A DNA stretch of 11,667 nucleotides from a virus (taxonomy: Duplodnaviria > Heunggongvirae > Uroviricota > Caudoviricetes), in IMG/VR virus record IMGVR_UViG_2541047721_000002. One strand, written 5' to 3'. A program made the translations under genes and the position numbers. Shown here piece by piece: positions 1 through 11,667 of this stretch. Each line of letters opens with the position of its first letter. Within the stretch, counting starts at the first letter, position 1. The notes below the pieces were generated by a model that searched no databases, was not told the origin of the DNA, and worked only from the letters and a program-made list of their open reading frames with translations.

Positions 1-1293
<1,293 letters not shown>

Positions 1294-1315
1294 TACCCAA
1301 TTTTTCTGAATCTAA

Positions 1316-1335
1316 AAAGCGCCTGCGGGCGCTTT
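1316..1335 (+). terminator. short GC hairpin (AGCGCC-TGCG-GGCGCT) just after serS stop; weak or truncated T-tract
   Basis: Perfect 6-bp inverted repeat with 4-nt loop seen directly; followed by TTAAG rather than a U-run, so it may be a disrupted terminator or junction remnant. Confidence 0.3.
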
Positions 1336-1413
1336 AAGTAGAGGTTTAATCATTTGAAAATAAATGGATTTTATTTTTAAGTGTCCATATAACGTCCATC
1401 TTTGAATGCAAAA

Positions 1414-1448
1414 AGCCCACAGCTTCTATGCTGTGGGCTTTGTTTTTT
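1414..1448 (+). terminator. rho-independent terminator downstream of serS
   Basis: AGCCCACAG-cttctatg-CTGTGGGCT 9-bp stem followed by TTGTTTTTT; preceded by an A-run so it could act in both directions. Confidence 0.6.
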
Positions 1449-1469
1449 GGTGTCCTCATGAGTGAGGGA

Positions 1470-1504
1470 ATCAAAAAGAAAACCCGCAGTTTTTACGCTG
1501 CGGG
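1470..1504 (-). terminator. rho-independent terminator for the minus-strand hok-like transcript
   Basis: CCCGCAG / CTGCGGG 7-bp stem (1483-1489 and 1498-1504) with 8-nt loop; on the minus strand the stem is followed by TTTTCTTTTTGA (complement of 1465-1482). Confidence 0.55.
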
Positions 1505-1598
1505 CTTGTTGTTCACGTCAACTGGAAATAGGGTGCCTTTTCGACCTTTACCCTGGCAACCGATTGACGGGGAAGTTGCCTTCCCCGTCGCGGTTTCC

Positions 1599-1739
1599 TT
1601 ACTGCTTACACTGTAAGAACGCCGCAAACTCCGCTCCCCAGAAACTCATCCGTATTTCACACAGCGAACCGTGCAGCATCCAGATGATGAGGATTGCCGT
1701 CACGCAGAATGTGATGGCCGTAAGCGATTTTTGCGACAT
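1599..1739 (-). CDS. Hok/Gef-family type I toxin (small membrane-depolarising peptide), 46 aa
   Basis: Not in the ORF track (too short). Minus-strand ATG at 1739 preceded by AAGGAG RBS; translation MSQKSLTAITFCVTAILIIWMLHGSLCEIRMSFWGAEFAAFLQCKQ; TAA at 1601-1599. Single N-terminal hydrophobic helix plus the Hok-family C-terminal signature SLCE(I/L)R…(E)xAAF(L/M)AC, closest in my memory to HokA-type peptides. Overlapped by a longer out-of-frame upstream ORF (mok-like) and followed by a terminator. Confidence 0.7.
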   Translation of the reverse strand: MSQKSLTAITFCVTAILIIWMLHGSLCEIRMSFWGAEFAAFLQCKQ

Positions 1740-1842
1740 AGCGCTTGCTCCTTTTTCGGGGAGGCGCTAACCTATCACTTGCTGAGGGTAGATGGTTAGG
1801 GCCTCGGGTTAACGTTAAAGTTGACTCGGGGCCTTTCCACAT
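1657..1842 (-). CDS. mok-like overlapping reading frame (translational coupling ORF of a hok locus)
   Basis: 61-aa ORF starting at ATG 1842, overlapping the 5' part of the hok-like ORF in another frame, as in canonical hok/mok/sok loci. Its sequence has no recognisable domain; the call rests on arrangement only. Confidence 0.35.
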   Translation of the reverse strand: MWKGPESTLTLTRGPNHLPSASDRLAPPRKRSKRYVAKIAYGHHILRDGNPHHLDAARFAV

Positions 1843-1930
1843 CTGGCCTTCGGGTATTCCCTCCGACCATCAGCCGAAAGGCACCCGCGCGTAATCTATC
1901 GCTTTTTTGTTACTCCGGCAATTCTGCCTG

Positions 1931-2191
1931 TTAATTCTGAGATAAAGGCAAACTCATCTGATTGTTTCCCCTGTGTGAAGCTGGCAGCTCATGCCACGGG
2001 ATACCTTCTGAAGAGTGAACGCCGGAGGCGTGTTTTGATGTGAATTTATGGAAAGCTTCCAGTGTTGAGAAGCATACGCCGCATTCCAGATTGTTACACT
2101 GGTAATACTTTTGCCGCACGGTGTTTGAATCATTTTCCGGACGACTGGTGCGGATACGGGCAGATGCGCCACAAAGCGGACAACGGAACAT
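1931..2191 (-). CDS. ogr: Ogr/Delta-family zinc-finger late-gene transcriptional activator
   Basis: 86-aa ORF, ATG at 2191 with AAGGGAGG RBS 6 nt upstream; N-terminus MFRCPLCGASARIRTSR…YYQCNNLECGVCF has the C-x2-C…C-x4-C zinc-finger layout and closely resembles P2 Ogr / 186 B (MFHCPLC…ARTSR…HQCQN…C…F). Lies immediately downstream of D on the same strand, as in P2. Confidence 0.85.
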   Translation of the reverse strand: MFRCPLCGASARIRTSRPENDSNTVRQKYYQCNNLECGVCFSTLEAFHKFTSKHASGVHSSEGIPWHELPASHRGNNQMSLPLSQN

Positions 2192-2231
2192 AGCGACCTC
2201 CCTTAACGTGGTGCTGCCTATTCTAAGTTGC

Positions 2232-3341
2232 TCACTCTGTTTCCGCTATCCATTCCGGGATTTTTGCCTCAAGCTCAAGCTGCGTGGTAAAACCGCTGTT
2301 ATCAATGGTGTGCTCGGCTTTTGCAATGATCCAGTCCTGATTATCAATCTCGCTTTTAAATCCTGTTACCGTGCCATGCATTTCGGGGTAGAGTTCTGCA
2401 CGTCCACGCGCCAGCGTGATGGAGAATGATGCGGCTCCGCGTTGTAGTTGCTGCCACTTTGCCGCCGCTGCGCGTCTTGCTGCCTGCTCGTTCTGATAAG
2501 TCTTGCGTAACACAAACACATTGCCTTCCGCGCCTTCCATATAATCACCTTCGCGGCTGCTGCTTTTCTCCTTTTTGGGTTTTGGCGGTTTACGGCGTTT
2601 CACGCTGACTTTTTTCTTTTTCCCGTAATTAAGATCAAGCCAGTAAGCGCGTACCCCCGTATACGCTTCGCGGTCAGCAATGCGGAACTGATGGCGATCG
2701 CCGCTGCTGCGTGTGATGGCAAACGATGGCAACGGCTGGCCCTGTGCGTTCACGCCACCGCCGGGCATGATGAATAACAGATTACCGCTTTTTACCGTGG
2801 TGATTGCGCCCAGCATTTCCGCCATGCGCGTAAGGAAGGACATGTCGCTTTCTTCGGTCTGGTCGGCGTGGTCGATTTCGATATCCATCAGCATTTCGCT
2901 GATTTGCGGTTTCAGACCATACCGATGAGCGATGGCGGATACCACACGCTCAACGGTCACATCATGCCAGGACACCTCACGTTTAACGTTAAATTCATCC
3001 CGAAAATCTGCGCTTCTGGCTGAAACAGTCAGCCTGTCCGGCGGTCCTTCGTGAGCGATTTCATCAACAATGTAAGTGCCTTTTTCTGTCAGCGGTTCTC
3101 CTTTCCAGCCAATGAGAACCGTCAGGCGCGCGCCCCGTGGCGGTAGCTGCAACTGACCATCCGCATCATCCAGCGTGATGGTGAGCTGGTCCGCGTCAAA
3201 TCCCCGGTTGTCGGTCAGTGACAGGCTCATCAGGCGCTCTGCCACGCCTGACAGCGTTTTACCCTCCGCGAGAATATCAAAATCCGGCATTTTCACGGGG
3301 TCTGTGCCCTGACTGAGCAATTGCATGGTGGTATCGGTCAT
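2232..3341 (-). CDS. D: P2 gpD-like tail protein (tail-completion / late control D family)
   Basis: Minus-strand frame with stop at 2232. Motifs typical of P2 gpD are present (…SLSLTDNRGFDADQLTITLDDADG…, …SARSADFR…REVSWHD…, …AYTGV…, …REGDYMEGAEGNVF…, …QLQRG…FSI…GR…, …GFK…IDNQDW…NSGFTT.LELE…). I place the start at ATG 3341 (MTDTTMQLL…) because an AGGGAGG RBS lies 5-11 nt upstream; the ORF-track extension to 3473 has no RBS. Confidence 0.85.
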   Translation of the reverse strand: MTDTTMQLLSQGTDPVKMPDFDILAEGKTLSGVAERLMSLSLTDNRGFDADQLTITLDDADGQLQLPPRGARLTVLIGWKGEPLTEKGTYIVDEIAHEGPPDRLTVSARSADFRDEFNVKREVSWHDVTVERVVSAIAHRYGLKPQISEMLMDIEIDHADQTEESDMSFLTRMAEMLGAITTVKSGNLLFIMPGGGVNAQGQPLPSFAITRSSGDRHQFRIADREAYTGVRAYWLDLNYGKKKKVSVKRRKPPKPKKEKSSSREGDYMEGAEGNVFVLRKTYQNEQAARRAAAAKWQQLQRGAASFSITLARGRAELYPEMHGTVTGFKSEIDNQDWIIAKAEHTIDNSGFTTQLELEAKIPEWIAETE

Positions 3342-3498
3342 CTGTTCCCTCCCTGTGCGGCATAGTCGCATGTGCGTGCGGAGGGGGTTACTGCTTTTTG
3401 TTGTCGCCGGGTCGGGAGAACGGCGCAGGGGTGAGATTACGCGCGTGGTGGGTGATGATTGTTGCCGAATCATTTAACGGATACAAGGGGCTGAAGCT
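3342..3498. promoter_or_regulatory. divergent intergenic region between D (minus) and FI (plus); expected site of late promoter(s)
   Basis: 157-bp non-coding gap between two divergent start codons, each with a good RBS. I could not find a canonical Ogr-type TGT-N12-ACA element by eye, so promoter positions are unassigned. Confidence 0.4.
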
Positions 3499-4683
3499 AT
3501 GAGTGAAACTCGTTTTCATGGTGCCCGTGTTACGGAAAGTACCGACCTGGTAACAGCGATTAATGATGTTGATTCCAGCGTTATCGGTATCGTGGCAACG
3601 GCGGATGATGCGGACGCGAAGCTGTTCCCGCTGAACAAGCCCACACTGCTGACCCGCGTCAATGACGTGCTGGGAAAATGCGGGACAACGGGGACGCTTT
3701 ATCGTGCGCTTAAGGCCATCGCAGACCAGGTGAGCACAAAGGTGATCGTCGTTCGCGTGGCTGAACACAAAGAAGAAAACGGAAAGACGCAGGATCAACT
3801 GGTTATCGGTGGTTCTGAATCTGACGGCAGCTATACGGGGATGTATGCGCTGCTTGTTGCAGAGCAGGATGAAAGCATCGGATACCGTCCGCGTATTCTG
3901 GCCGCGCCGGAGCTGGACACGGAGGCGGTGACAAAATCCCTGTGCGTGATTGCGGGTAAACTGCGCGCGTTTGTGTATGCCACATGTCATGGTTGTAACA
4001 CGATGGCTGAGGCGATTACCTACCGCCAGAAATTCAACGAACGTGAGGTGATGCTCTTATGGCCTGACTTCATCGCCTACAACCCGAAAAGTGGCAAAAA
4101 CGAAACGTTCCCCGCGCCTGCTTATGCGTGCGGCCTTCGTGCGTACATTGACCATGAGCAGGGCTGGCACAAATCGCTGTCCAACGTTCCGGTTAAAAAT
4201 GTGCTGGGGATGTCGAGGCATGTGTTCTGGTCGTTACAGGCCGAAGACAGTGATGCCAACAGCCTCAACAACAAAGAAATCACGACCATTATTCGTCGTA
4301 ACGGGTTCCGCTTCTGGGGCAACCGCACACCGGAAACGAACGCCTACATCTTTGAGGTGTATACCCGAACCGCACAGGTGCTGGCTGATTCAATTGCGGA
4401 AGCGCAGTTTGAAACCATCGACAGTCCACTGACACCTGCGAACGTGAAGGATGTTATCAGCGCCATCAGAGCAAAACTGGATTCGCTGGTTACTGTCGGG
4501 AAACTGATTGGTGCGGAGTGCTGGTATGACGTGGTGGATAACAGCACCACGGGTTTACGTCAGGGGCGTGTGCGTATTCGCTACAAATATACGCCCGTTC
4601 CTCCGCTGGAAGACATGGAGCTTTACCAGTCGTTTACTGATGAATTCTTTGGTCCCGCATTTGCGGTGCTGGGAGGTGCCTGA
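3499..4683 (+). CDS. FI: contractile tail sheath protein (P2 gpFI family)
   Basis: 394-aa ORF, ATG at 3499 with AAGGGG RBS. Blocks co-linear with P2 FI: …DADA.LFPLNKP.L…, …GTLY.AL.AIADQ…, …KLRAFVYA…, …YRQ.F..RE.M..WPDF…, …DHEQGWHK.LSNV…, …IRR.GFRFWGNRT…, …Y.RTAQV.AD…, …I.Y.YTPVPPLE…. Confidence 0.93.
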   Translation: MSETRFHGARVTESTDLVTAINDVDSSVIGIVATADDADAKLFPLNKPTLLTRVNDVLGKCGTTGTLYRALKAIADQVSTKVIVVRVAEHKEENGKTQDQLVIGGSESDGSYTGMYALLVAEQDESIGYRPRILAAPELDTEAVTKSLCVIAGKLRAFVYATCHGCNTMAEAITYRQKFNEREVMLLWPDFIAYNPKSGKNETFPAPAYACGLRAYIDHEQGWHKSLSNVPVKNVLGMSRHVFWSLQAEDSDANSLNNKEITTIIRRNGFRFWGNRTPETNAYIFEVYTRTAQVLADSIAEAQFETIDSPLTPANVKDVISAIRAKLDSLVTVGKLIGAECWYDVVDNSTTGLRQGRVRIRYKYTPVPPLEDMELYQSFTDEFFGPAFAVLGGA

Positions 4684-5195
4684 TGGCTGTACCAAAACAT
4701 CTTCGCTTTTTTACGTTGTTTGTGGATGGTGAAAACGAAGTGGGTAAAGTGACATCCGTCACGCCACCCAAACTGACGCGCAAAACCGACAGCTATCGTG
4801 GTGGTGGCATGATGGGGGCGGTAAGTATTGATCTCGGTCTGGACGACTCCGCGCTTGATGCGAGTTTTGTCATGGGGGGAGCTGTTCGTGCGCTGTTCCT
4901 TAAATATGGCGGCACGATTGACGGCACGCTGCTGCGTTTTGCGGGTGAATACTACACCGATGCAGAAAGCGATCTGTATGAAATCGAGATGCGCGGGCGT
5001 GTGACGGAAATTGATATGGGGGAGGCCAAACAGGGCGAAGCCACATCACACACTTACGCTGTCAAAAACACCTACTACAAGCTGAGCGTTAACGATCGCC
5101 CGCTGTGGGAAATCGACCTGTTGAACCACATCTACCGGAAGGACGGCAAGGACATTGTGCCTGACCGCATTCGTTCCGCGCTTGGGCTTGGCTGA
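4683..5195 (+). CDS. FII: tail tube protein (P2 gpFII family)
   Basis: 170-aa ORF whose ATG (4683-4685) overlaps the FI stop TGA (4681-4683) in a TGATG arrangement; size and position immediately after the sheath gene match P2 FII. Confidence 0.88.
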   Translation: MAVPKHLRFFTLFVDGENEVGKVTSVTPPKLTRKTDSYRGGGMMGAVSIDLGLDDSALDASFVMGGAVRALFLKYGGTIDGTLLRFAGEYYTDAESDLYEIEMRGRVTEIDMGEAKQGEATSHTYAVKNTYYKLSVNDRPLWEIDLLNHIYRKDGKDIVPDRIRSALGLG

Positions 5196-5250
5196 TAAGT
5201 AATATGCAGGCGGCGCAGTGCGTCGCCTCTGACTGAAAAGGAGACAACTG

Positions 5251-5625
5251 ATGAAAGATATCGATACTGAAACCCGGAATAACACCGTAGCGGATGATGT
5301 GACGTCAGGTGAGGATATGGCTGTCGAACGTGGTGTAAAACTTTCCCGGCCAATTGAGCGTGGTGCCGAAAAAATCACATATGTGGAGATCACCGGGGCT
5401 ATTGAACAGGCTGGATCCCTGCGTGGTCTGTCTCTGTCTGATGTGCTGAATCTGAAAGCGGATACCATGTTCACGCTGTTGCCTCGCGTGACCTCGCCAC
5501 GACTGGATGAAGTGATGATTAAAAAAATGTCGTCACGCGATTTTATTCAGTTGTGCGCTGTGGCTGTAAATTTTATGAGCGAGCCAGACTCTGGCGCGAA
5601 GAGCGTGCAGGAGACGGCAGCGTAA
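5251..5625 (+). CDS. E: tail assembly chaperone E (P2 gpE; lambda gpG analogue)
   Basis: 124-aa ORF, ATG at 5251 preceded by AAAAGGAGA RBS; sits between the tube gene and the tape measure gene, with an overlapping -1 frame ORF running to 5789 as expected for E/E'. Confidence 0.75.
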   Translation: MKDIDTETRNNTVADDVTSGEDMAVERGVKLSRPIERGAEKITYVEITGAIEQAGSLRGLSLSDVLNLKADTMFTLLPRVTSPRLDEVMIKKMSSRDFIQLCAVAVNFMSEPDSGAKSVQETAA

Positions 5626-5789
5626 TCACCCTGGTGTGCTTTGAGCACATCGAAGATCTGGTGGCGGATATTGCCGCCATTTTTAACTGGTCGCCCGCCG
5701 AAATCTTCATGATGACGCCCGGCGAAGTGGTTAGCTGGCGCGAGCGGGCGGCACTTCGCAGCGGGAATGCAGACAATGAAGACTCTTGA
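5523..5789 (+). CDS. E: E' extension frame, expressed as an E+E' fusion by -1 programmed ribosomal frameshift (P2 gpE+E'; lambda gpGT analogue)
   Basis: The -1 frame relative to E is open from 5523 to TGA at 5787-5789 and overlaps the T start, as in P2. Candidate slippery sites in the overlap: A AAT TTT at 5568-5574 (fits X_XXY_YYZ in the E frame) and the A7 run at 5521-5527. The downstream E' part (SVITLVCFEHIEDLVADIAAIFNWSPAEIFMMTPGEVVSWRERAALRSG) looks protein-like. Confidence 0.6.
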   Translation, partial: KNVVTRFYSVVRCGCKFYERARLWREERAGDGSVITLVCFEHIEDLVADIAAIFNWSPAEIFMMTPGEVVSWRERAALRSGNADNEDS

Positions 5790-8583
5790 TATCCGGGTCG
5801 CTTTCAGCGCCGTTGACAGGCTGACCCGGCCTGCCGAAAACGCCCGCCGCCTGATGGGGCAGTTTGGTGACTCCATCCAGCGAACGCAGGGGGCGATCAA
5901 AAATCTCGAGCGTCAGGCGCGTTCATTTGAGCGCGCCCGTGACGCTGTCAGTAAAGCGGATGCGGGCATCGTGAAAGCACGACGCCAGCTTAACGCCCTT
6001 AATCAGTTACAACGCACGGGTACAGTGCTCAGCGAAAAACAACAAAAGCTGATGCAGCAGTTAAGCACCCGGCTTGAACGCCTGAATGAATCGCGCACAC
6101 GGGAAATTCAGAAAATGCGGGAACTTGGCGGAGAGCTGAAACGCCACGGCATTTCCCTGACAGGCAGCGATAACACCATCCAGCAGGCCATCAGACGCAC
6201 CGAACAGTACAACAACCAGCTTGAACGCGAACGGCAGGCGCTTGCGCGTGTAACGCGGGCGCGTGAGCGGTATTCGCGCGCGCAGGAAACCGCGGGAAAA
6301 CTGAAAACAGGTGGTGCGCTGGCAATTGGTGCTGCAGCGGCTGGCGGCTATGCTGCCGGGCGTTTTTTGCAGCCTGCGATCGGGTTCGGCAAAGAGATGT
6401 CCCGCGTTCAGGCACTGACGCGAATCGACAAAAACAGCCCGCAGTTTAAGGCGCTGCGTGAGCAGGCGTTAAAACTTGGTTCTGAAACACAGTTTACTGC
6501 GAGTGATGCCGCCAGTGGGCAGAGCTTTCTGGCAATGGCTGGTTTTACTCCGCAGGCCATTCAGGCCGCATTGCCCGGTGTTCTTAATATGGCGCTGGCA
6601 GGTGGCGTCGAACTCGGCGAGACGGCTGATATAGGCTCCAATATCCTCACACAGTTCAACCTGACAGCCGATCAAATGGACCGGGTTGGCGATACGCTGA
6701 CAGCAGCATTCACCCGGACCAATACTGATTTACGCGCGCTGGGCGAAACCATGAAGTATACCGGTCCGGTTGCCGCAAAACTTGGTATCAGTCTTGAAGA
6801 AGCGGCGGCCATGGCCGGGATGCTTGCCAATAATGGTCTTCGCGGAAGCGATGCTGGTACGGCCATGCGCGCAAGTCTGTCCCGCCTTGCATCACCGCCA
6901 AAAGCTGCGGCTGATGCACTGAAAGAGCTGGGGGTGTCAGTTGCTGACGCCAGAGGCAAAATGCGCCCGATGGAGGATGTGCTGCTTGATCTCTATAAGG
7001 CGACACAAAAATACGGACAGGTGGACCAGGTTTCCTTCTTCAAGGACATCGCCGGAGAAGAGGCGTTCGTTGGTTTACAGACGCTTGTTGCGGCGGCTGG
7101 TTCAGGAGAGCTGCAAAAACTGACCAGAGAATTGCAGGGGGCAAGGGGAGAGGCCGATCGCGTTGCAAAAGTAATGGCCGATAATCTTGATGGGGACCTG
7201 AAAAATCTCGACAGCGCATGGGAAGGTCTTCGTATTCGCATCAGTGATCTGGTTGACGGTCCGCTGCGTTCTGTCACGCAGTGGCTCACGCGGGTGCTTG
7301 AAAAAATCACCTCGCTGGCGCAGGCCCATCCGGTACTGACGCGCCAGCTACTGATAGCAGGCGGTGCGTTGCTGGCAATGACTGCAACGATTGGCTCGTT
7401 GTCGCTGGTTATTGGGGTGCTTTACGGAAAGCTGGCCACCCTGCGTCTTGGTTTTGACATTCTTACCCGGTCAATGAATGTCGTCCGGGTGTTGCCTGCG
7501 CTGTGGGGAATGCTGACGGGTTCTGTTTCTTTGCTGGGAGGCGCTATCGGGGCGCTGTTCAGTCCGGTTGGATTGATTGCTGCTGCGTTTGTGGCTGCGG
7601 CGGTTCTCATCTGGAAATACTGGGAACCCATTAAGGCGTTTTATGCCGGGGTGTTCAACGGGATTATGGAAAGGCTGACCCCGTTGCGCGAAACCTTTGA
7701 ACGGTTTGGTCCTGTTTTTGACGCAATCGGAAGCGGGATCAGCCAGGTGTTTAACTGGTTTAAATCGCTGCTGTCACCGATGGAGTCCAGCAAGGAAACG
7801 CTGGATAAATGTACCAGTGCTGGCGAGATATTCGGTAACGTTCTTGGTGGCGCGTTACAGCTTGTTCTGACGCCTGCAAAAATGTTGCTGGATACGCTGG
7901 CGTGGATACTTGAAAAACTCGGTGTTCTTCCGGATGAAGCGGAAAGGGCGAGAAAGAAAATCGAAGACGTACAGCGTGCGGCCATTCTTCAGGACAAGGT
8001 TACCTTGCTTCAGGGGGACCTGGCGAAAATCAATCCGCCGAAGCCTGTGGAAAATGGCAATGGCACCGGAGGTGATAACCCCAAAGACAATAAACCGCTC
8101 ACAGACAGCAATACCGGGACGCTGCGCAGACTCAGCAAAATTGCTGATAACACAGGTAAGCTGGTTGAGGAGACGAAAAAACGCATTGGCCCCGGCGATA
8201 TTGTCTTTAAAAACCTGCCCCGAGCACTTGCTGTTCGTGGGGAGTGGCAGGAGCGGAAGATTGCGCAGGTCAGTAAGCCTGCCCCCGCAATTAATATCAC
8301 ACCCGTGGTCCCGGCTCCGCTGCCTCCGGCGCTGGTCCCTGTTGTTGCGGCCAGCTCCCGCCCGGTGGCGGAGGCCATACGATCTCCAGTGGCATCAGTT
8401 CCTGTAACTTCCCGTAACCGGGAGCCTGTTGCCTCCGGATTTGGTGGTGAAATTCATGTTCATCTGCATAACGTTGTTACGCAGAATCCCCGCGAACTGG
8501 CGAAACTGGTCGGTGAAATGGTCAGGGCAGAAATGGAACGGCGTGCCCGTGCCGGGCGTGGCAGTTTTTACGATAAAGATTGA
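5767..8583 (+). CDS. T: tail tape measure protein (P2 gpT family)
   Basis: 938-aa ORF, the largest in the cluster, directly after E/E'. It has an N-terminal coiled-coil region rich in Q/R/E/L, a central hydrophobic segment (~7320-7640) and a Pro/Val/Ala-rich C-terminus. Start could be ATG 5767 or ATG 5776. Confidence 0.9.
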   Translation: MQTMKTLDIRVAFSAVDRLTRPAENARRLMGQFGDSIQRTQGAIKNLERQARSFERARDAVSKADAGIVKARRQLNALNQLQRTGTVLSEKQQKLMQQLSTRLERLNESRTREIQKMRELGGELKRHGISLTGSDNTIQQAIRRTEQYNNQLERERQALARVTRARERYSRAQETAGKLKTGGALAIGAAAAGGYAAGRFLQPAIGFGKEMSRVQALTRIDKNSPQFKALREQALKLGSETQFTASDAASGQSFLAMAGFTPQAIQAALPGVLNMALAGGVELGETADIGSNILTQFNLTADQMDRVGDTLTAAFTRTNTDLRALGETMKYTGPVAAKLGISLEEAAAMAGMLANNGLRGSDAGTAMRASLSRLASPPKAAADALKELGVSVADARGKMRPMEDVLLDLYKATQKYGQVDQVSFFKDIAGEEAFVGLQTLVAAAGSGELQKLTRELQGARGEADRVAKVMADNLDGDLKNLDSAWEGLRIRISDLVDGPLRSVTQWLTRVLEKITSLAQAHPVLTRQLLIAGGALLAMTATIGSLSLVIGVLYGKLATLRLGFDILTRSMNVVRVLPALWGMLTGSVSLLGGAIGALFSPVGLIAAAFVAAAVLIWKYWEPIKAFYAGVFNGIMERLTPLRETFERFGPVFDAIGSGISQVFNWFKSLLSPMESSKETLDKCTSAGEIFGNVLGGALQLVLTPAKMLLDTLAWILEKLGVLPDEAERARKKIEDVQRAAILQDKVTLLQGDLAKINPPKPVENGNGTGGDNPKDNKPLTDSNTGTLRRLSKIADNTGKLVEETKKRIGPGDIVFKNLPRALAVRGEWQERKIAQVSKPAPAINITPVVPAPLPPALVPVVAASSRPVAEAIRSPVASVPVTSRNREPVASGFGGEIHVHLHNVVTQNPRELAKLVGEMVRAEMERRARAGRGSFYDKD

Positions 8584-8589
8584 GGAGTC

Positions 8590-9084
8590 ATGGCCATGAT
8601 GATGATCTATGGCATGTTTGTTTTTGAGCTGCGCACATTGCCGCATCAGCAGTTACAGCAAAACAAAAGCTGGCGGCATGTGAAAAATGAACGCGTTAAT
8701 CGTTCAGCAAGCTGGCAGTATATCGGCGCAGGTGATGATCGCATCGTGCTTTCCGGCGTGCTTTATCCTGAAATTACAGGTGGCGAAGTGTCGCTTTCGT
8801 TGCTGACCACGCAGGCATATACAGGACGCCCCTGGCCTCTGATTGATGGTGTCGGGCAGATTTACGGCATGTATGTACTGACTGAAACGAATACGACCCG
8901 TTCCGAGTTTGATCGCTACGGTAAGGCGAAAAAGATAGAATTTTCACTGACTCTTGAACGCTGTGATGAGGATTTGCGGGAGCGCCTGCAATCCTCATCG
9001 TTCAGTGATATGCTGTCCGGCTTCAAAGATAAGGTCACATCATCCCTTAACAGCGCGGCCAGCTCCGTTAAAGGGCTGTTTTGA
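8590..9084 (+). CDS. U: tail protein U (P2 gpU family)
   Basis: 164-aa ORF, ATG at 8590 with GAGGAG RBS, immediately after T. N-terminus (M)MMIYGMFVFELRTLP… and overall size match P2 gpU. Confidence 0.88.
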   Translation: MAMMMIYGMFVFELRTLPHQQLQQNKSWRHVKNERVNRSASWQYIGAGDDRIVLSGVLYPEITGGEVSLSLLTTQAYTGRPWPLIDGVGQIYGMYVLTETNTTRSEFDRYGKAKKIEFSLTLERCDEDLRERLQSSSFSDMLSGFKDKVTSSLNSAASSVKGLF

Positions 9085-9092
9085 TTAACGCA

Positions 9093-9120
9093 AAACCGCT
9101 AATGGTCAGATTAGCGGTTT
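9093..9120. terminator. bidirectional hairpin between convergent U and invertase genes
   Basis: AAACCGCTAAT-ggtcag-ATTAGCGGTTT 11-bp stem followed by TCATTTTCC; the invertase stop codon (9111-9113) lies inside the stem. Confidence 0.5.
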
Positions 9121-9710
9121 TCATTTTCCTGAGTCTGCCTGGTTGTTTCTTCAGCCTGTATATCGCCTACAGGGTGATAACGATAAATCGTCGATATGCC
9201 GATGTCGTAAATGATCGCCAGTTGTTTCCTGTCATGACCGTTTTTAATCAGCCTCGCTATTTGCTCGTGTTGTTCTTTTGTCAACTTCGGGCGACGTCCG
9301 CCAATGCGTCCTTGTGCGCGTGCTGCTGCCAGCCCGGCCAGTGTACGCTCTACAATTAATTCACGTTCCATTTCGGCTAAAGCCCCCATGACGTGAAAAA
9401 AGAAACGCCCCATGGGTGTTGATGTGTCAATGCTGTCCGTCAGACTACGGAAATTAACACCTTTTTCCCGCAATTCCTCAATAAGCGTGATCAGGTGTTT
9501 CATACTTCTGCCCAGTCTGTCCAGCTTCCAGACAACCAGCGTATCTCCTTCTGATAGCGTTCTGAGCAGTTTTTTCAATCCCGGTCTGGTTGATTTCGTT
9601 CCGCTGATTTTATCTTCAAAAATCAGTTCACATCCTGCGCAGTTCAGTGCATTGCGTTGTAAATCCGTGTTCTGGTCGTTTGTTGACACACGAATATAGC
9701 CAATTTGCAT
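9111..9710 (-). CDS. serine DNA invertase, Gin/Pin/Hin/Cin family
   Basis: Minus-strand ORF. I place the start at ATG 9710 (MQIGYIRVSTNDQNTDLQRNAL…), which gives ~199 aa. The N-terminus and catalytic region (…GDTLVVWKLDRLGRSMKHLI…FRSLTDSIDTS.PMGRFFFHVMGALAEMERELI.ERT.AGLAAAR..GRIGGR.PKLT…) are nearly identical in pattern to E. coli Pin and Mu Gin, including the active-site serine in YIRVST. A C-terminal helix-turn-helix region follows. Confidence 0.93.
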   Translation of the reverse strand: MQIGYIRVSTNDQNTDLQRNALNCAGCELIFEDKISGTKSTRPGLKKLLRTLSEGDTLVVWKLDRLGRSMKHLITLIEELREKGVNFRSLTDSIDTSTPMGRFFFHVMGALAEMERELIVERTLAGLAAARAQGRIGGRRPKLTKEQHEQIARLIKNGHDRKQLAIIYDIGISTIYRYHPVGDIQAEETTRQTQENENR

Positions 9711-9764
9711 AAAAAACATCCTCTTTGTTTCGTGAAAAATACAGAGTTGGTATAGGTAGGGATA

Positions 9765-9790
9765 AAAACGAAAACGTTGGTTTAGGAGAA
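9765..9790. other. putative left crossover site of the invertible segment (gix/hix/pix-like)
   Basis: AAAACGAAAACG-TT-GGTTTAGGAGAA. The inner half-site in complement reads TTCTCCTAAACC, close to the half-site of known Gin/Hin sites (TTCCTGTAAACC / TTATCAAAAACC) as I remember them. The outer half is degenerate. The core dinucleotide falls at the V-G codons before the conserved LGEG motif. Confidence 0.45.
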
Positions 9791-10138
9791 GGCTCGGCGC
9801 TACCCGTTGGTGTGCCTGTTCCGTGGCCCACCGCCACACCGCCAGCAGGCTGGTTAAAGTGCGACGGGCGCGCCTTTACAAAAGAACAATATCCTGTTCT
9901 GGCCAGAGCCTACCCGACCCTCCGTCTTCCCGATTTACGCGGTGAGTTTATCCGTGGATGGGACGACGGGCGCAAAGTTGATACAGGACGTAAGTTGCTG
10001 TCCGCACAAGGGGCAACTATGTTATCCGCTTTTGTTGTTGATTATTCCAAACAGGTCACTACGCTAGGCTCGAGGAAAGTCGGCATGGGAGACACTATAG
10101 CAGATTACCAACCAGACGTTAGTGATGGCAACTTTTAG
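9776..10138 (+). CDS. silent alternative tail-fibre C-terminal cassette (Sv'-like), promoterless in this orientation
   Basis: Open frame …VGLGEGSALPVGVPVPWPTATPPAGWLKCDGRAFTKEQYPVLARAYPTLRLPDLRGEFIRGWDDGRKVDTGRKLLSAQG…DGNF*. The first ~70 aa are near-identical to the expressed cassette on the opposite strand and include the tail-fibre collar-type PDLRG…RGWD motif. There is no ATG or RBS; the frame begins at the crossover site. Confidence 0.6.
   Translation, partial: VGLGEGSALPVGVPVPWPTATPPAGWLKCDGRAFTKEQYPVLARAYPTLRLPDLRGEFIRGWDDGRKVDTGRKLLSAQGATMLSAFVVDYSKQVTTLGSRKVGMGDTIADYQPDVSDGNF
9818..9965. repeat. left copy of ~148-bp near-identical inverted repeat inside the invertible segment
   Basis: By manual reverse-complement alignment, 9818-9965 matches the complement of 11193-11340 with only a few mismatches, whereas flanking coding sequence drops to roughly 80% identity with synonymous differences. 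Confidence 0.7.
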
Positions 10139-10863
10139 ATACTTGATGCGTCCTCATTCGGCGCTCCAAGCTTAGCAATGTGGGATAATGTATCAGAGGG
10201 CACCCTCCAGATCGCAATTAAAAGTAGCTTTACGACGGCTAGCTATGGCTCAACCGGCAGGATTGAATGTAATTTCAGGCTAACTGATTTCTAATGAGTA
10301 GCACAGCTCTACTGCGTTCAGACCGTATATCTAATCTAGCAGGCGGTATCATTTTGTAGCTTCTTGACGTGGAAGCCCGGGAATAGACCTCAGTTTCTGT
10401 TTGATATGACGGCCTGACGCTGTGGCCTGTGTCACCTTTTGGTGGCGTTGCACTCTCGCAACCTCCATTGCGGCGCTTCGTTTCCGGTACTGATAGGTTG
10501 CCCGGGTCTGAGCGTTCCACTTATCACAGCGGCTAGATGGTTTTCATCTGGTAGAGTGGGACGGGCAATCAGCTTATCCGGCAGGGAGATTGGGGTTAGC
10601 ACTCTCCCAGAAAAATGCCGGCCAGGCGCGGGGATCAGTGACATGCTCACGCCTGTTTAACGGGTCCGGACGGCAAGCCACGTGACGCAAAGTAGCTTCC
10701 CACACTGCAACGCCGGCCGAGGGTGACACAGTAGCTGCCGCAAGTGGAACTTACCACCCTGAGGATGAGTTGTATTCCCAGTCTTACACCACATGGTGCG
10801 ATAAAATTAAATCGCGCGCTACAGTATAGCTACCAGTTTCATGCAGAACATATCTGCTAGTCA
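10139..10863. other. ~725-bp ORF-free core of the invertible segment; function unknown
   Basis: No ORF over 81 aa in any frame, and those present are low-complexity with no RBS. It lies where tail-fibre assembly chaperone genes sit in Mu G, P1 C and e14 P segments. Contains at least 4 CTAG tetranucleotides (10239, 10336, 10533, 10857), a motif normally scarce in enterobacterial DNA. Confidence 0.5.
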
Positions 10864-11667
10864 CTAGACATCACTTAGCCTGTAGTACCGTTCAAACTTA
10901 CGGGTTGAACGGGTTCTCCCCGCCGTCAAGCTATTTTTGATTGCGGTAATAAGAGGGCCAGGCATAACATTGTCCGACATTTCAAAGCTTTGTTCGCCTA
11001 AAGATGTTCCATCAGGTATTCTCTTTCTGCCCTCACTAACGCCCATTTTGGTATAGGCTTTAGTGTCACCAAATCCGAATTGCGCAGAGCCGCCCGTACT
11101 GTCATCGCTGTAATAATCCAGCTCAGCTCCGCTTACGATCGTCCCCTCTTGAAATGAAAGTACCGTACGCCCGGTATCAACCTTGCGACCACCGTCCCAT
11201 CCACGGATAAACTCACCGCGCAAATCGGGAAGACGGAGGGTCGGGTAGACTCTGGCCAGAACAGGATATTGTTCTTTGGTGAACGTAGCTCCGTTGCACT
11301 GTAACCAGCCTGCTGGCGGTGTGGCAGTGGGCCACGGAACAGGTACACCAACAGGCAATGCAGAGCCTTCCCCCAAACCAAGGTAATTGAGGACATCTTT
11401 TATACTGCCCTTAGCGATAATAGCGCGACCAATAGCTGTAAGGGTTGCCAGCGCTGCGCGGTCTGCTCCGGTAAAATAAGGCAACCGATCTGCTGCAGTG
11501 GCAAGTCCTGCCAGAGCAGTGAGCGTGGCATCTGCCGGTTGTTTTCCGTTTGCCAGATCGTATGCAGCCTTGACCGCTTTCGGTGTGGCGGCCAGTATTT
11601 CAGACGTGCTGTTGGTGGCGCTACTGAGTTGAACAAGGCCTTTTCGTGCCGTAGTCGCATCCTGAGC
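10864..11667 (-). CDS. tail fibre protein, 3' portion (expressed orientation; 5' part lies beyond the right window edge)
   Basis: I translated the minus-strand frame by hand from 11667 down to TAG at 10866-10864 and it is open throughout: …SSATNSTSEILAATPKAVKAAYDLANGKQPADATLTALAGLATAADRLPYFTGADRAALATLTAIGRAIIAKGSIKDVLNYLGLGEGSALPVGVPVPWPTATPPAGWLQCNGATFTKEQYPVLARVYPTLRLPDLRGEFIRGWDGGRKVDTGR…YRLSDV*. The ORF-track start at 11484 is a TTG inside this frame, not the true start. Contains the collar-type motif shared by Mu S, P1 S and e14 StfE-type fibres. Confidence 0.85.
   Translation of the reverse strand, partial: AQDATTARKGLVQLSSATNSTSEILAATPKAVKAAYDLANGKQPADATLTALAGLATAADRLPYFTGADRAALATLTAIGRAIIAKGSIKDVLNYLGLGEGSALPVGVPVPWPTATPPAGWLQCNGATFTKEQYPVLARVYPTLRLPDLRGEFIRGWDGGRKVDTGRTVLSFQEGTIVSGAELDYYSDDSTGGSAQFGFGDTKAYTKMGVSEGRKRIPDGTSLGEQSFEMSDNVMPGPLITAIKNSLTAGRTRSTRKFERYYRLSDV
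11193..11340. repeat. right copy of ~148-bp near-identical inverted repeat
   Basis: Reverse complement of 11193-11340 aligns with 9818-9965, e.g. ACCAAAGAACAATATCCTGTTCTGGCCAGAGTCTACCCGACCCTCCGTCTTCCCGATTT versus ACAAAAGAACAATATCCTGTTCTGGCCAGAGCCTACCCGACCCTCCGTCTTCCCGATTT. Confidence 0.7.
11368..11393. other. putative right crossover site of the invertible segment (gix/hix/pix-like)
   Basis: TTCCCCCAAACC-AA-GGTAATTGAGGA. The inner half-site TTCCCCCAAACC is in inverted orientation to the left site. The core falls at the L-G codons (CTT GGT) before LGEG in the expressed fibre, in the same codon phase as the left site, so inversion would give an in-frame fusion. Confidence 0.45.

Follow-up and report, generated by a model that had tools for sequence, protein, structure and literature searches.

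The arms of an invertible tail-fibre segment in a P2-like Escherichia coli prophage remnant as a probable recombination mosaic

Results

Gene content of the locus

The window, by which we mean the whole 11,667-nucleotide stretch analysed here (IMG/VR record IMGVR_UViG_2541047721_000002), is a segment of an E. coli chromosome that carries serS (1-1293) and then a P2-like prophage remnant. The remnant encodes a tail sheath (3499-4683) followed by the tube gene, a tape measure protein (5767-8583) and gpU (8590-9084). The closest complete genome is that of E. coli U15A, which is 100% identical to the window over 9000-10017 and 11150-11667. At the right end, on the minus strand, lies the constant part of a P2 gpH-like tail-fibre gene (11382..11667), which continues past the end of the window; in the U15A fibre protein, Pfam detects the domains Phage_tail_fib and Phage_fiber_2. 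Between this constant part and an invertase gene is an invertible segment of approximately 1.6 kb. The locus as a whole is a tail-fibre inversion switch of the Gin/Cin type, carried by the P2-like remnant next to serS.

The gene at 9111..9710 (minus strand) is predicted to encode a serine DNA invertase of the Gin/Cin/Pin/Hin type with 199 amino acids. Pfam matches to Resolvase (2.4e-51) and HTH_7 (1.4e-12), a match of residues 1-185 to the Gin invertase structures 4m6f/3uj3 (E = 2.4e-91) and 76% identity to the invertase of the Mu-like phage SfMu indicate a small serine recombinase, close to Gin and Cin, with a resolvase catalytic domain and a C-terminal HTH. A recombinational enhancer, putatively Fis-dependent, probably lies inside the 5' end of this gene at 9621..9692 (minus strand); nucleotides 19-90 of the gene match the annotated P1 cin enhancer, which has the same position, at 56/72 sites, but this is coding sequence, so the likeness is not independent evidence.

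Two predicted 26-bp crossover sites bound the segment. The left site (9765..9790) reads AAAACGAAAACG TT GGTTTAGGAGAA, with exchange expected at 9777-9778, and the right site (11368..11393) reads, in reverse complement, TCCTCAATTACC TT GGTTTGGGGGAA, with exchange expected at 11380-11381. The inner half of the left site agrees with P1 cixL/cixR (GGTTTAAGAGAA) at 11/12 positions and shares the central TT, and the inner half of the right site agrees with the annotated P1 cix at 9/12. The inverted orientation of the two sites and their identical central dinucleotide TT are those expected of a Gin/Cin/Pin/Hin (Din) segment.

The arms of the repeat sit just inside the crossover sites. Each encodes the Collar domain with which one of the two alternative C-terminal cassettes of the P2-like tail-fibre gene begins. 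The left arm (9779..9991, plus strand) spans codons 1-71 of the silent cassette (type 0, KLLSAQGAT...) and encodes a Phage Tail Collar domain (Pfam PF07484, 3.8e-16). The right arm (11167..11379, minus strand) spans codons 1-71 of the expressed cassette (type 1, TVLSFQEGT...); its Collar domain, scored in the U15A fibre protein, has a value of 1.1e-14. The fibre frame stays open from the window end, across the constant part and the right crossover site, into the right arm, which is thus in frame with the constant fibre part. The left cassette lacks its own N-terminus, and the U15A annotation describes it as 'missing N-terminus'. Inversion joins the constant N-terminal part of the gene to one or the other C-terminal cassette.

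Identity along the repeat

With an ungapped alignment in which position x pairs with 21158-x, the natural repeat extends over 9777-9992 and 11166-11381 at 88% identity, and the two 71-codon arms are identical at 186/213 positions. The original prediction had placed a near-identical 148-bp core at 9818-9965 and 11193-11340, and this pairing is correct (9818 with 11340, 9965 with 11193). The identity of the core had been put at nearly 100%. We found 135/148 identical positions (91.2%), and the longest exact runs were 28, 28, 27, 24 and 17 bp, which does not agree with the long perfect inverted repeat that had been described.

The core consists of two high-identity tracts split by a divergent island. 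Tract 1 (9815-9862, paired with 11296-11343) is identical at 46/48 positions and tract 2 (9881-9964, paired with 11194-11277) at 82/84, while the 18-bp island between them (9863-9880, paired with 11278-11295) is identical at 9/18 (50%) and contains three amino-acid changes. Just ahead of the island, a further difference at 9857 exchanges K for Q, and the 24-nt block 9857-9880 exists as two alleles, encoding KCDGRAFT or QCNGATFT, that reassort among cassette types. The flanks had been predicted to be about 80% identical with synonymous changes, and both are at 78%: the 5' flank (9779-9814) at 28/36, where 12/12 amino acids are the same and seven codons are synonymously changed, and the 3' flank (9965-9991) at 21/27. 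The arm proteins share 65/71 residues, which does not agree with the proposal that both cassettes encode the same amino acids over about 70 residues.

Synonymous divergence is not uniform along the repeat. We compared those codons that specify the same residue in both arms and contain a degenerate site: 2/39 of them differ inside the tracts and 14/23 in the remainder of the arm (Fisher p = 2.3e-6; the tract limits were set after the data had been inspected). When sites were permuted, a maximum chi-square scan gave p of approximately 0.018, and its top segment was the island. The predicted step change in identity was therefore borne out by the computed alignment, in which identity was not uniform.

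A repeat search on the window reported a longer repeat of 357 nt at 77%. This figure is inflated because the segment interior, an artefact described below, is 61% self-complementary; the corresponding value in natural sequence is 25%.

A chimeric segment interior

Comparison with U15A showed that the interior of the segment (10018..11149) is a per-base chimera of both orientations. Relative to U15A, it contains 434 point substitutions and no indels, and its ORFs are destroyed. Over the 1160 positions of 10000-11159, 431 carry the forward U15A base only, 433 carry the inverted base only (the complement of U15A at 21158-x), 295 are compatible with both and one with neither. Adjacent informative sites come from the same source in 47.8% of cases and run lengths are geometric, so the choice is independent from site to site. 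The interior is an artefact, an approximately 50:50 mix of both orientations that is not a real molecule. The arms, unlike the interior, are purely in forward orientation.

Natural divergence is excluded as the origin of the interior by the substitutions without indels, their equal distribution over codon positions (148/144/142), the lack of a transition bias and the destroyed ORFs. DGR-type mutagenesis is excluded because all four bases are equally affected, and a simple inversion relative to U15A is excluded by the site-by-site mix. The pattern looks like consensus calling or random resolution of ambiguity codes from a culture with both orientations, or like synthetic alteration. All 414 other genomes compared are approximately 63% identical to 10018-11149, no complete E. 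coli genome exceeds 63% over the interior, and a 38-mer from it was absent from three public collections of viral, genome and metagenome contig sequences. Any reading of ORFs, repeats or divergence within 10018-11149 is consequently invalid. According to the U15A annotation, natural relatives carry here the rest of cassette 0 (to 10294), a tail-fibre assembly gene (10294-10908, plus strand) and the end of cassette 1, with its stop at 10915 (minus strand).

Arms in related prophages

A peptide scan of IMG/VR retrieved 80 loci, to which 13 orthologous E. coli loci were added; the arm comparison set comprised 142 arms from 91 loci, and these align without gaps over 71 amino acids. Relatives with 3 to 9 collar arms were among those retrieved. 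At third codon positions, arms of different loci are 0.64 and 0.59 identical in the two tracts, against 0.63 in the flank, so that the core is not conserved as DNA across the family.

In the close E. coli group, arms are assembled from few blocks in varying combinations: block A (9784-9814), the island (9857-9880), the single sites 9909 and 9937, and a 3' block. Four versions of the arm's 5' part are found in combination with the type-0 cassette, and which island allele is present does not depend on cassette type. All four gametes were found, within 213 nt, for the site pairs 9796/9857, 9796/9909, 9909/9937 and 9857/9937, and blocks are thus reassorted among paralogous arms. One chimeric arm, which combines block A of the L type with island 2 and was first seen in E. 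coli U13A, has 99.2% matches in at least six further independent genomes. Arms of this kind occur in approximately 1000 E. coli genomes. Some public assemblies of this phase-variable locus may hold polishing chimeras, as the interior of the window certainly does, that mimic reassortment in individual cases.

The longest perfect run between arms varies from 20 to 197 nt across loci. Homogenised arms are seen in some strains, with 197 nt perfect in 266917_2 and 158 nt in L004, while in strain 1450, which has the same cassette pair as 266917_2, the longest run is 66 nt. The window pair ranks 46-47 of 54 inverted pairs in this respect. The same type-0/type-1 pair, 88% identical, is present essentially unchanged in U15A, PCN033, strain 131, LS4, L007 and L010, with the same 26-29 differences even where the invertase region of the prophage is only 86-88% identical.

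In 25/25 multi-arm loci, the arms resemble one another more than they resemble arms from elsewhere (0.904 vs 0.777, Wilcoxon p = 1.2e-5), a result that may partly reflect recent cassette duplication and non-independence of the loci. Type-0 arms are not significantly closer to their own partner (0.928) than to partners in other E. coli loci (0.922; permutation p = 0.18). Because of this, conversion within a locus is inseparable from exchange between phages.

Both orientations in natural isolates

The clonal urine isolates U13A and U14A, with genomes of 5,061,273 and 5,061,272 bp, carry the segment in opposite orientations at the same locus coordinates. The inverted alignment of U13A to U15A stops at 9777 and 11381 of the window, within the dinucleotides predicted for crossover, and the right junction between U13A and U14A likewise coincides with the crossover dinucleotide. 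Both orientations therefore occur naturally, and they meet the flanking DNA at the crossover sites. Between KUN2017 and DA33135, the whole three-cassette segment is cleanly inverted, and the arms moved intact with their cassettes. Exchange therefore took place outside the arms, and the case fits site-specific inversion, with no sign of homologous inversion within the arms.

The left arm of U13A retains eight L-type bases at 9784-9814, and both arms of this isolate thus share block A. A simple reciprocal homologous crossover inside the arms is excluded as an explanation for U13A, as two arms with L-type block A are a non-reciprocal outcome. The cause of this oddity is either gene conversion or the polishing of an assembly from a mixed culture.

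Discussion

By exchange at the 26-bp sites (centres 9777/8 and 11380/1), the invertase joins the constant fibre part to either cassette, and each cassette opens directly after the crossover site with a Collar module before diverging into a different tip. About 71 codons are repeated in inverted orientation because both cassettes start with this shared module.

We consider it likely that these are the homologous arms of a Gin/Cin-type segment whose patchy identity is a recombination mosaic drawn from a shared pool of blocks. All cassette types in the prophage lineage would take their collar-coding start from a small common pool, within which blocks would have been exchanged repeatedly, through gene conversion where the arms share a locus and through recombination where they belong to different phages. 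The clean tracts would then be the currently homogeneous parts of the pool, with no DNA-level function of their own, and would not record a recent event in the window strain. The reassortment of blocks is observed directly in the relatives, while the mechanism and timing of the exchanges are those that we infer from it.

Two of the alternatives had been put forward in the original prediction. It is unlikely that the near-identical core arose when, in the recent history of this strain's lineage, one of these two copies converted the other. The step change in synonymous divergence would be expected from such an event, homogenisation resembling conversion is clear in 266917_2 and L004, and the clonal isolates U13A and U14A show a non-reciprocal arm difference. 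However, the type-0/type-1 pair has the same differences in the six other genomes listed above, the clean tracts are common to all cassette types of the pool and not to these two alone, and the window pair is among the least homogenised, with its longest run of 28 bp. The part of the proposal that invoked recombination or conversion in this region is thus supported by the relatives, while the unchanged recurrence of the pair speaks against the part that placed a recent event between these two copies. Selection on the DNA or RNA itself, for example as an accessory invertase site, as an RNA structure with a regulatory role or as DNA maintained for RecA-dependent inversion without the invertase, is the least probable of the explanations considered, and we regard it as highly improbable. 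Long arms beside crossover sites do recur (558 nt perfect in P1, 100-197 nt in some E. coli strains), and homologous recombination between arms would in principle yield the same functional switch. Yet the synonymous sites of the tracts vary between loci as much as those of the flank, run lengths and boundaries differ from locus to locus, and a search of the window against Rfam matched no family, so that neither synonymous conservation across diverged relatives nor fixed boundaries, as expected of a functional DNA or RNA element, was found. A run of 28 bp is close to the lower limit for efficient RecA/RecBCD recombination, and a mismatch of 9% suppresses it further. This removes the premise of the proposed RecA-dependent inversion through a long perfect repeat, which is also opposed by the arms of KUN2017 and DA33135, which moved intact with their cassettes, and by the right junction of U13A at the crossover dinucleotide. 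Gin, Cin and Hin need only their 26-bp sites and the enhancer.

The best-conserved portion of the Collar domain (WP...AGW, LPDLRGEFIRGWD) is encoded within the tracts, and this would suit an explanation by purifying selection on the protein together with codon preference, without recombination. As the sole cause of the tracts this is very unlikely and already largely refuted: synonymous differences affect 7/12 and 4/8 of the flanking codons whose amino acids are equally identical, compared with 2/39 of the tract codons, the third positions of the tracts are only 0.59-0.64 identical between phages, indicating that codon choice is unconstrained, and the four-gamete patterns require exchange.

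The recombination mosaic could be extended to a broader role of the arms. The collar-coding arms might serve as a homologous 'landing pad' at which host recombination, besides the invertase, keeps swapping blocks and even whole cassettes. U13A and U14A would then differ by inversion plus non-reciprocal replacement of the eight sites at 9784-9814, a conversion caught between clonal isolates of one patient series. We offer this as a speculative and rather improbable proposal.

The biology of the locus is the standard host-range switch of a P2-like prophage. The repeat in the window is imperfect and is consequently not citable as DNA on which inversion could proceed efficiently without the invertase. 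The collar-coding start of the cassettes is a recombination-prone module, which is relevant for the typing or engineering of such fibres. Searching the literature for earlier accounts of such conversion in the arms yielded only general papers on prophage inversion. P2-like E. coli prophages with Hin-family invertases, as in EPEC E2348/69, switch between two variants, or four where there are three inverted repeats, in clonal cultures (Goldberg et al. 2014, PMC4272514), and programmed inversion is known to act on fibre genes as one class of target (PMC9881135). Compared with the P2-like loci of the EPEC type and the multi-cassette loci of the Min type, the window holds the simple two-arm version.

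The G segment of Mu, inverted by Gin, follows the same logic, with a constant Sc part fused to alternative Sv or Sv' parts, and the invertase of the window resembles the Mu-type enzymes in its matches to the Gin structures and to the SfMu invertase. The inverted repeats of Mu are only 34 bp, however, and hence contain no long coding arm common to both cassettes. The closest parallel in layout is the C segment of P1 with Cin, which has the same order of invertase gene, crossover site, silent cassette, chaperone gene or genes, expressed cassette, crossover site and constant fibre part. In P1, as here, each crossover site (cix in P1) forms the outer end of a long inverted repeat, in which the start common to both variable parts is encoded, and such long arms beside crossover sites are textbook knowledge for that phage. 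The two systems differ in that P1 has two chaperone genes (U and U') where natural relatives of the window have one, and in that the invertase gene points towards the segment in P1 and away from it here. The P1 arms are perfect over 558 nt (approximately 600 nt in all) and do not contain this Collar sequence, whereas the arms of the window span approximately 216 nt at 88% identity. The repeat in the window is thus a weaker instance of an arrangement already known from the design of P1.

Possible sequence exchange between the arms

The arms of the invertible segment are the inverted, collar-coding starts of two alternative fibre cassettes. In E. coli 266917_2 (arms at 1080-1292 and 2480-2692 of its locus) they are identical without mismatch over 197 nt, and the 'island 2' allele of the two-allele block at 9857-9880 of the window is present on both. 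Strain 1450 carries the same cassette pair, and there the arms differ at 14 sites. The 266917_2 arms are the clearest single example of arm homogenisation.

The segment is inverted between the clonal isolates U13A and U14A. When the U13A arms (1080-1292 and 2467-2679 of its locus) were compared with the U14A locus, the differing block corresponded to window positions 9784-9814 (block A). Because the same left-arm version of block A, comprising eight sites, is present in both U13A arms, the difference is non-reciprocal. Its source is gene conversion or, alternatively, an artefact of assembly polishing; the chimeric arm of U13A recurs in six other genomes (99.2%).

The segment interior and its chaperone gene

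At window 10018-11149, each base derives from either the forward or the inverted natural sequence of the U15A type, in a roughly 50:50 proportion and independently from site to site. Over the 1160 positions 10000-11159, 431 matched only the forward U15A-type sequence, 433 only the inverted one, 295 both and 1 neither. Indels are absent from the 10018-11149 interior, every ORF there is destroyed, and the mixed sequence was absent from all public collections searched. Almost certainly the mixture arose artificially, either as a consensus or ambiguity artefact from a culture containing both orientations or through synthetic alteration.

Natural relatives carry only one tail-fibre assembly (chaperone) gene per segment. 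In U15A it lies at 12294-12908 (window 10294-10908), co-oriented with the silent left (type-0) cassette. In the window orientation, the expressed type-1 cassette is not followed by a chaperone gene on its own strand, and neither are the extra cassettes of the three-cassette relatives KUN2017, DA33135 and FDAARGOS_1077.

Gene order and multi-cassette relatives

Left of the tail genes, indels separate window 1294-3500 from U15A (3292-5500). An intact 413-aa ORF occupies window 2232-3473 on the minus strand, where the U15A annotation has a shorter VgrG/Pvc8-family (gpD-like) gene. The fibre/baseplate and sheath-to-gpU blocks are convergent in the window, unlike the P2 gene order.

Some IMG/VR relatives have 4 to 9 collar arms per locus (L040, at 1140-5971; L075, at 3523-8044; L011; L067; L047). 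These loci are multi-cassette, shufflon-like forms of the window's fibre switch and resemble the p15B Min system.
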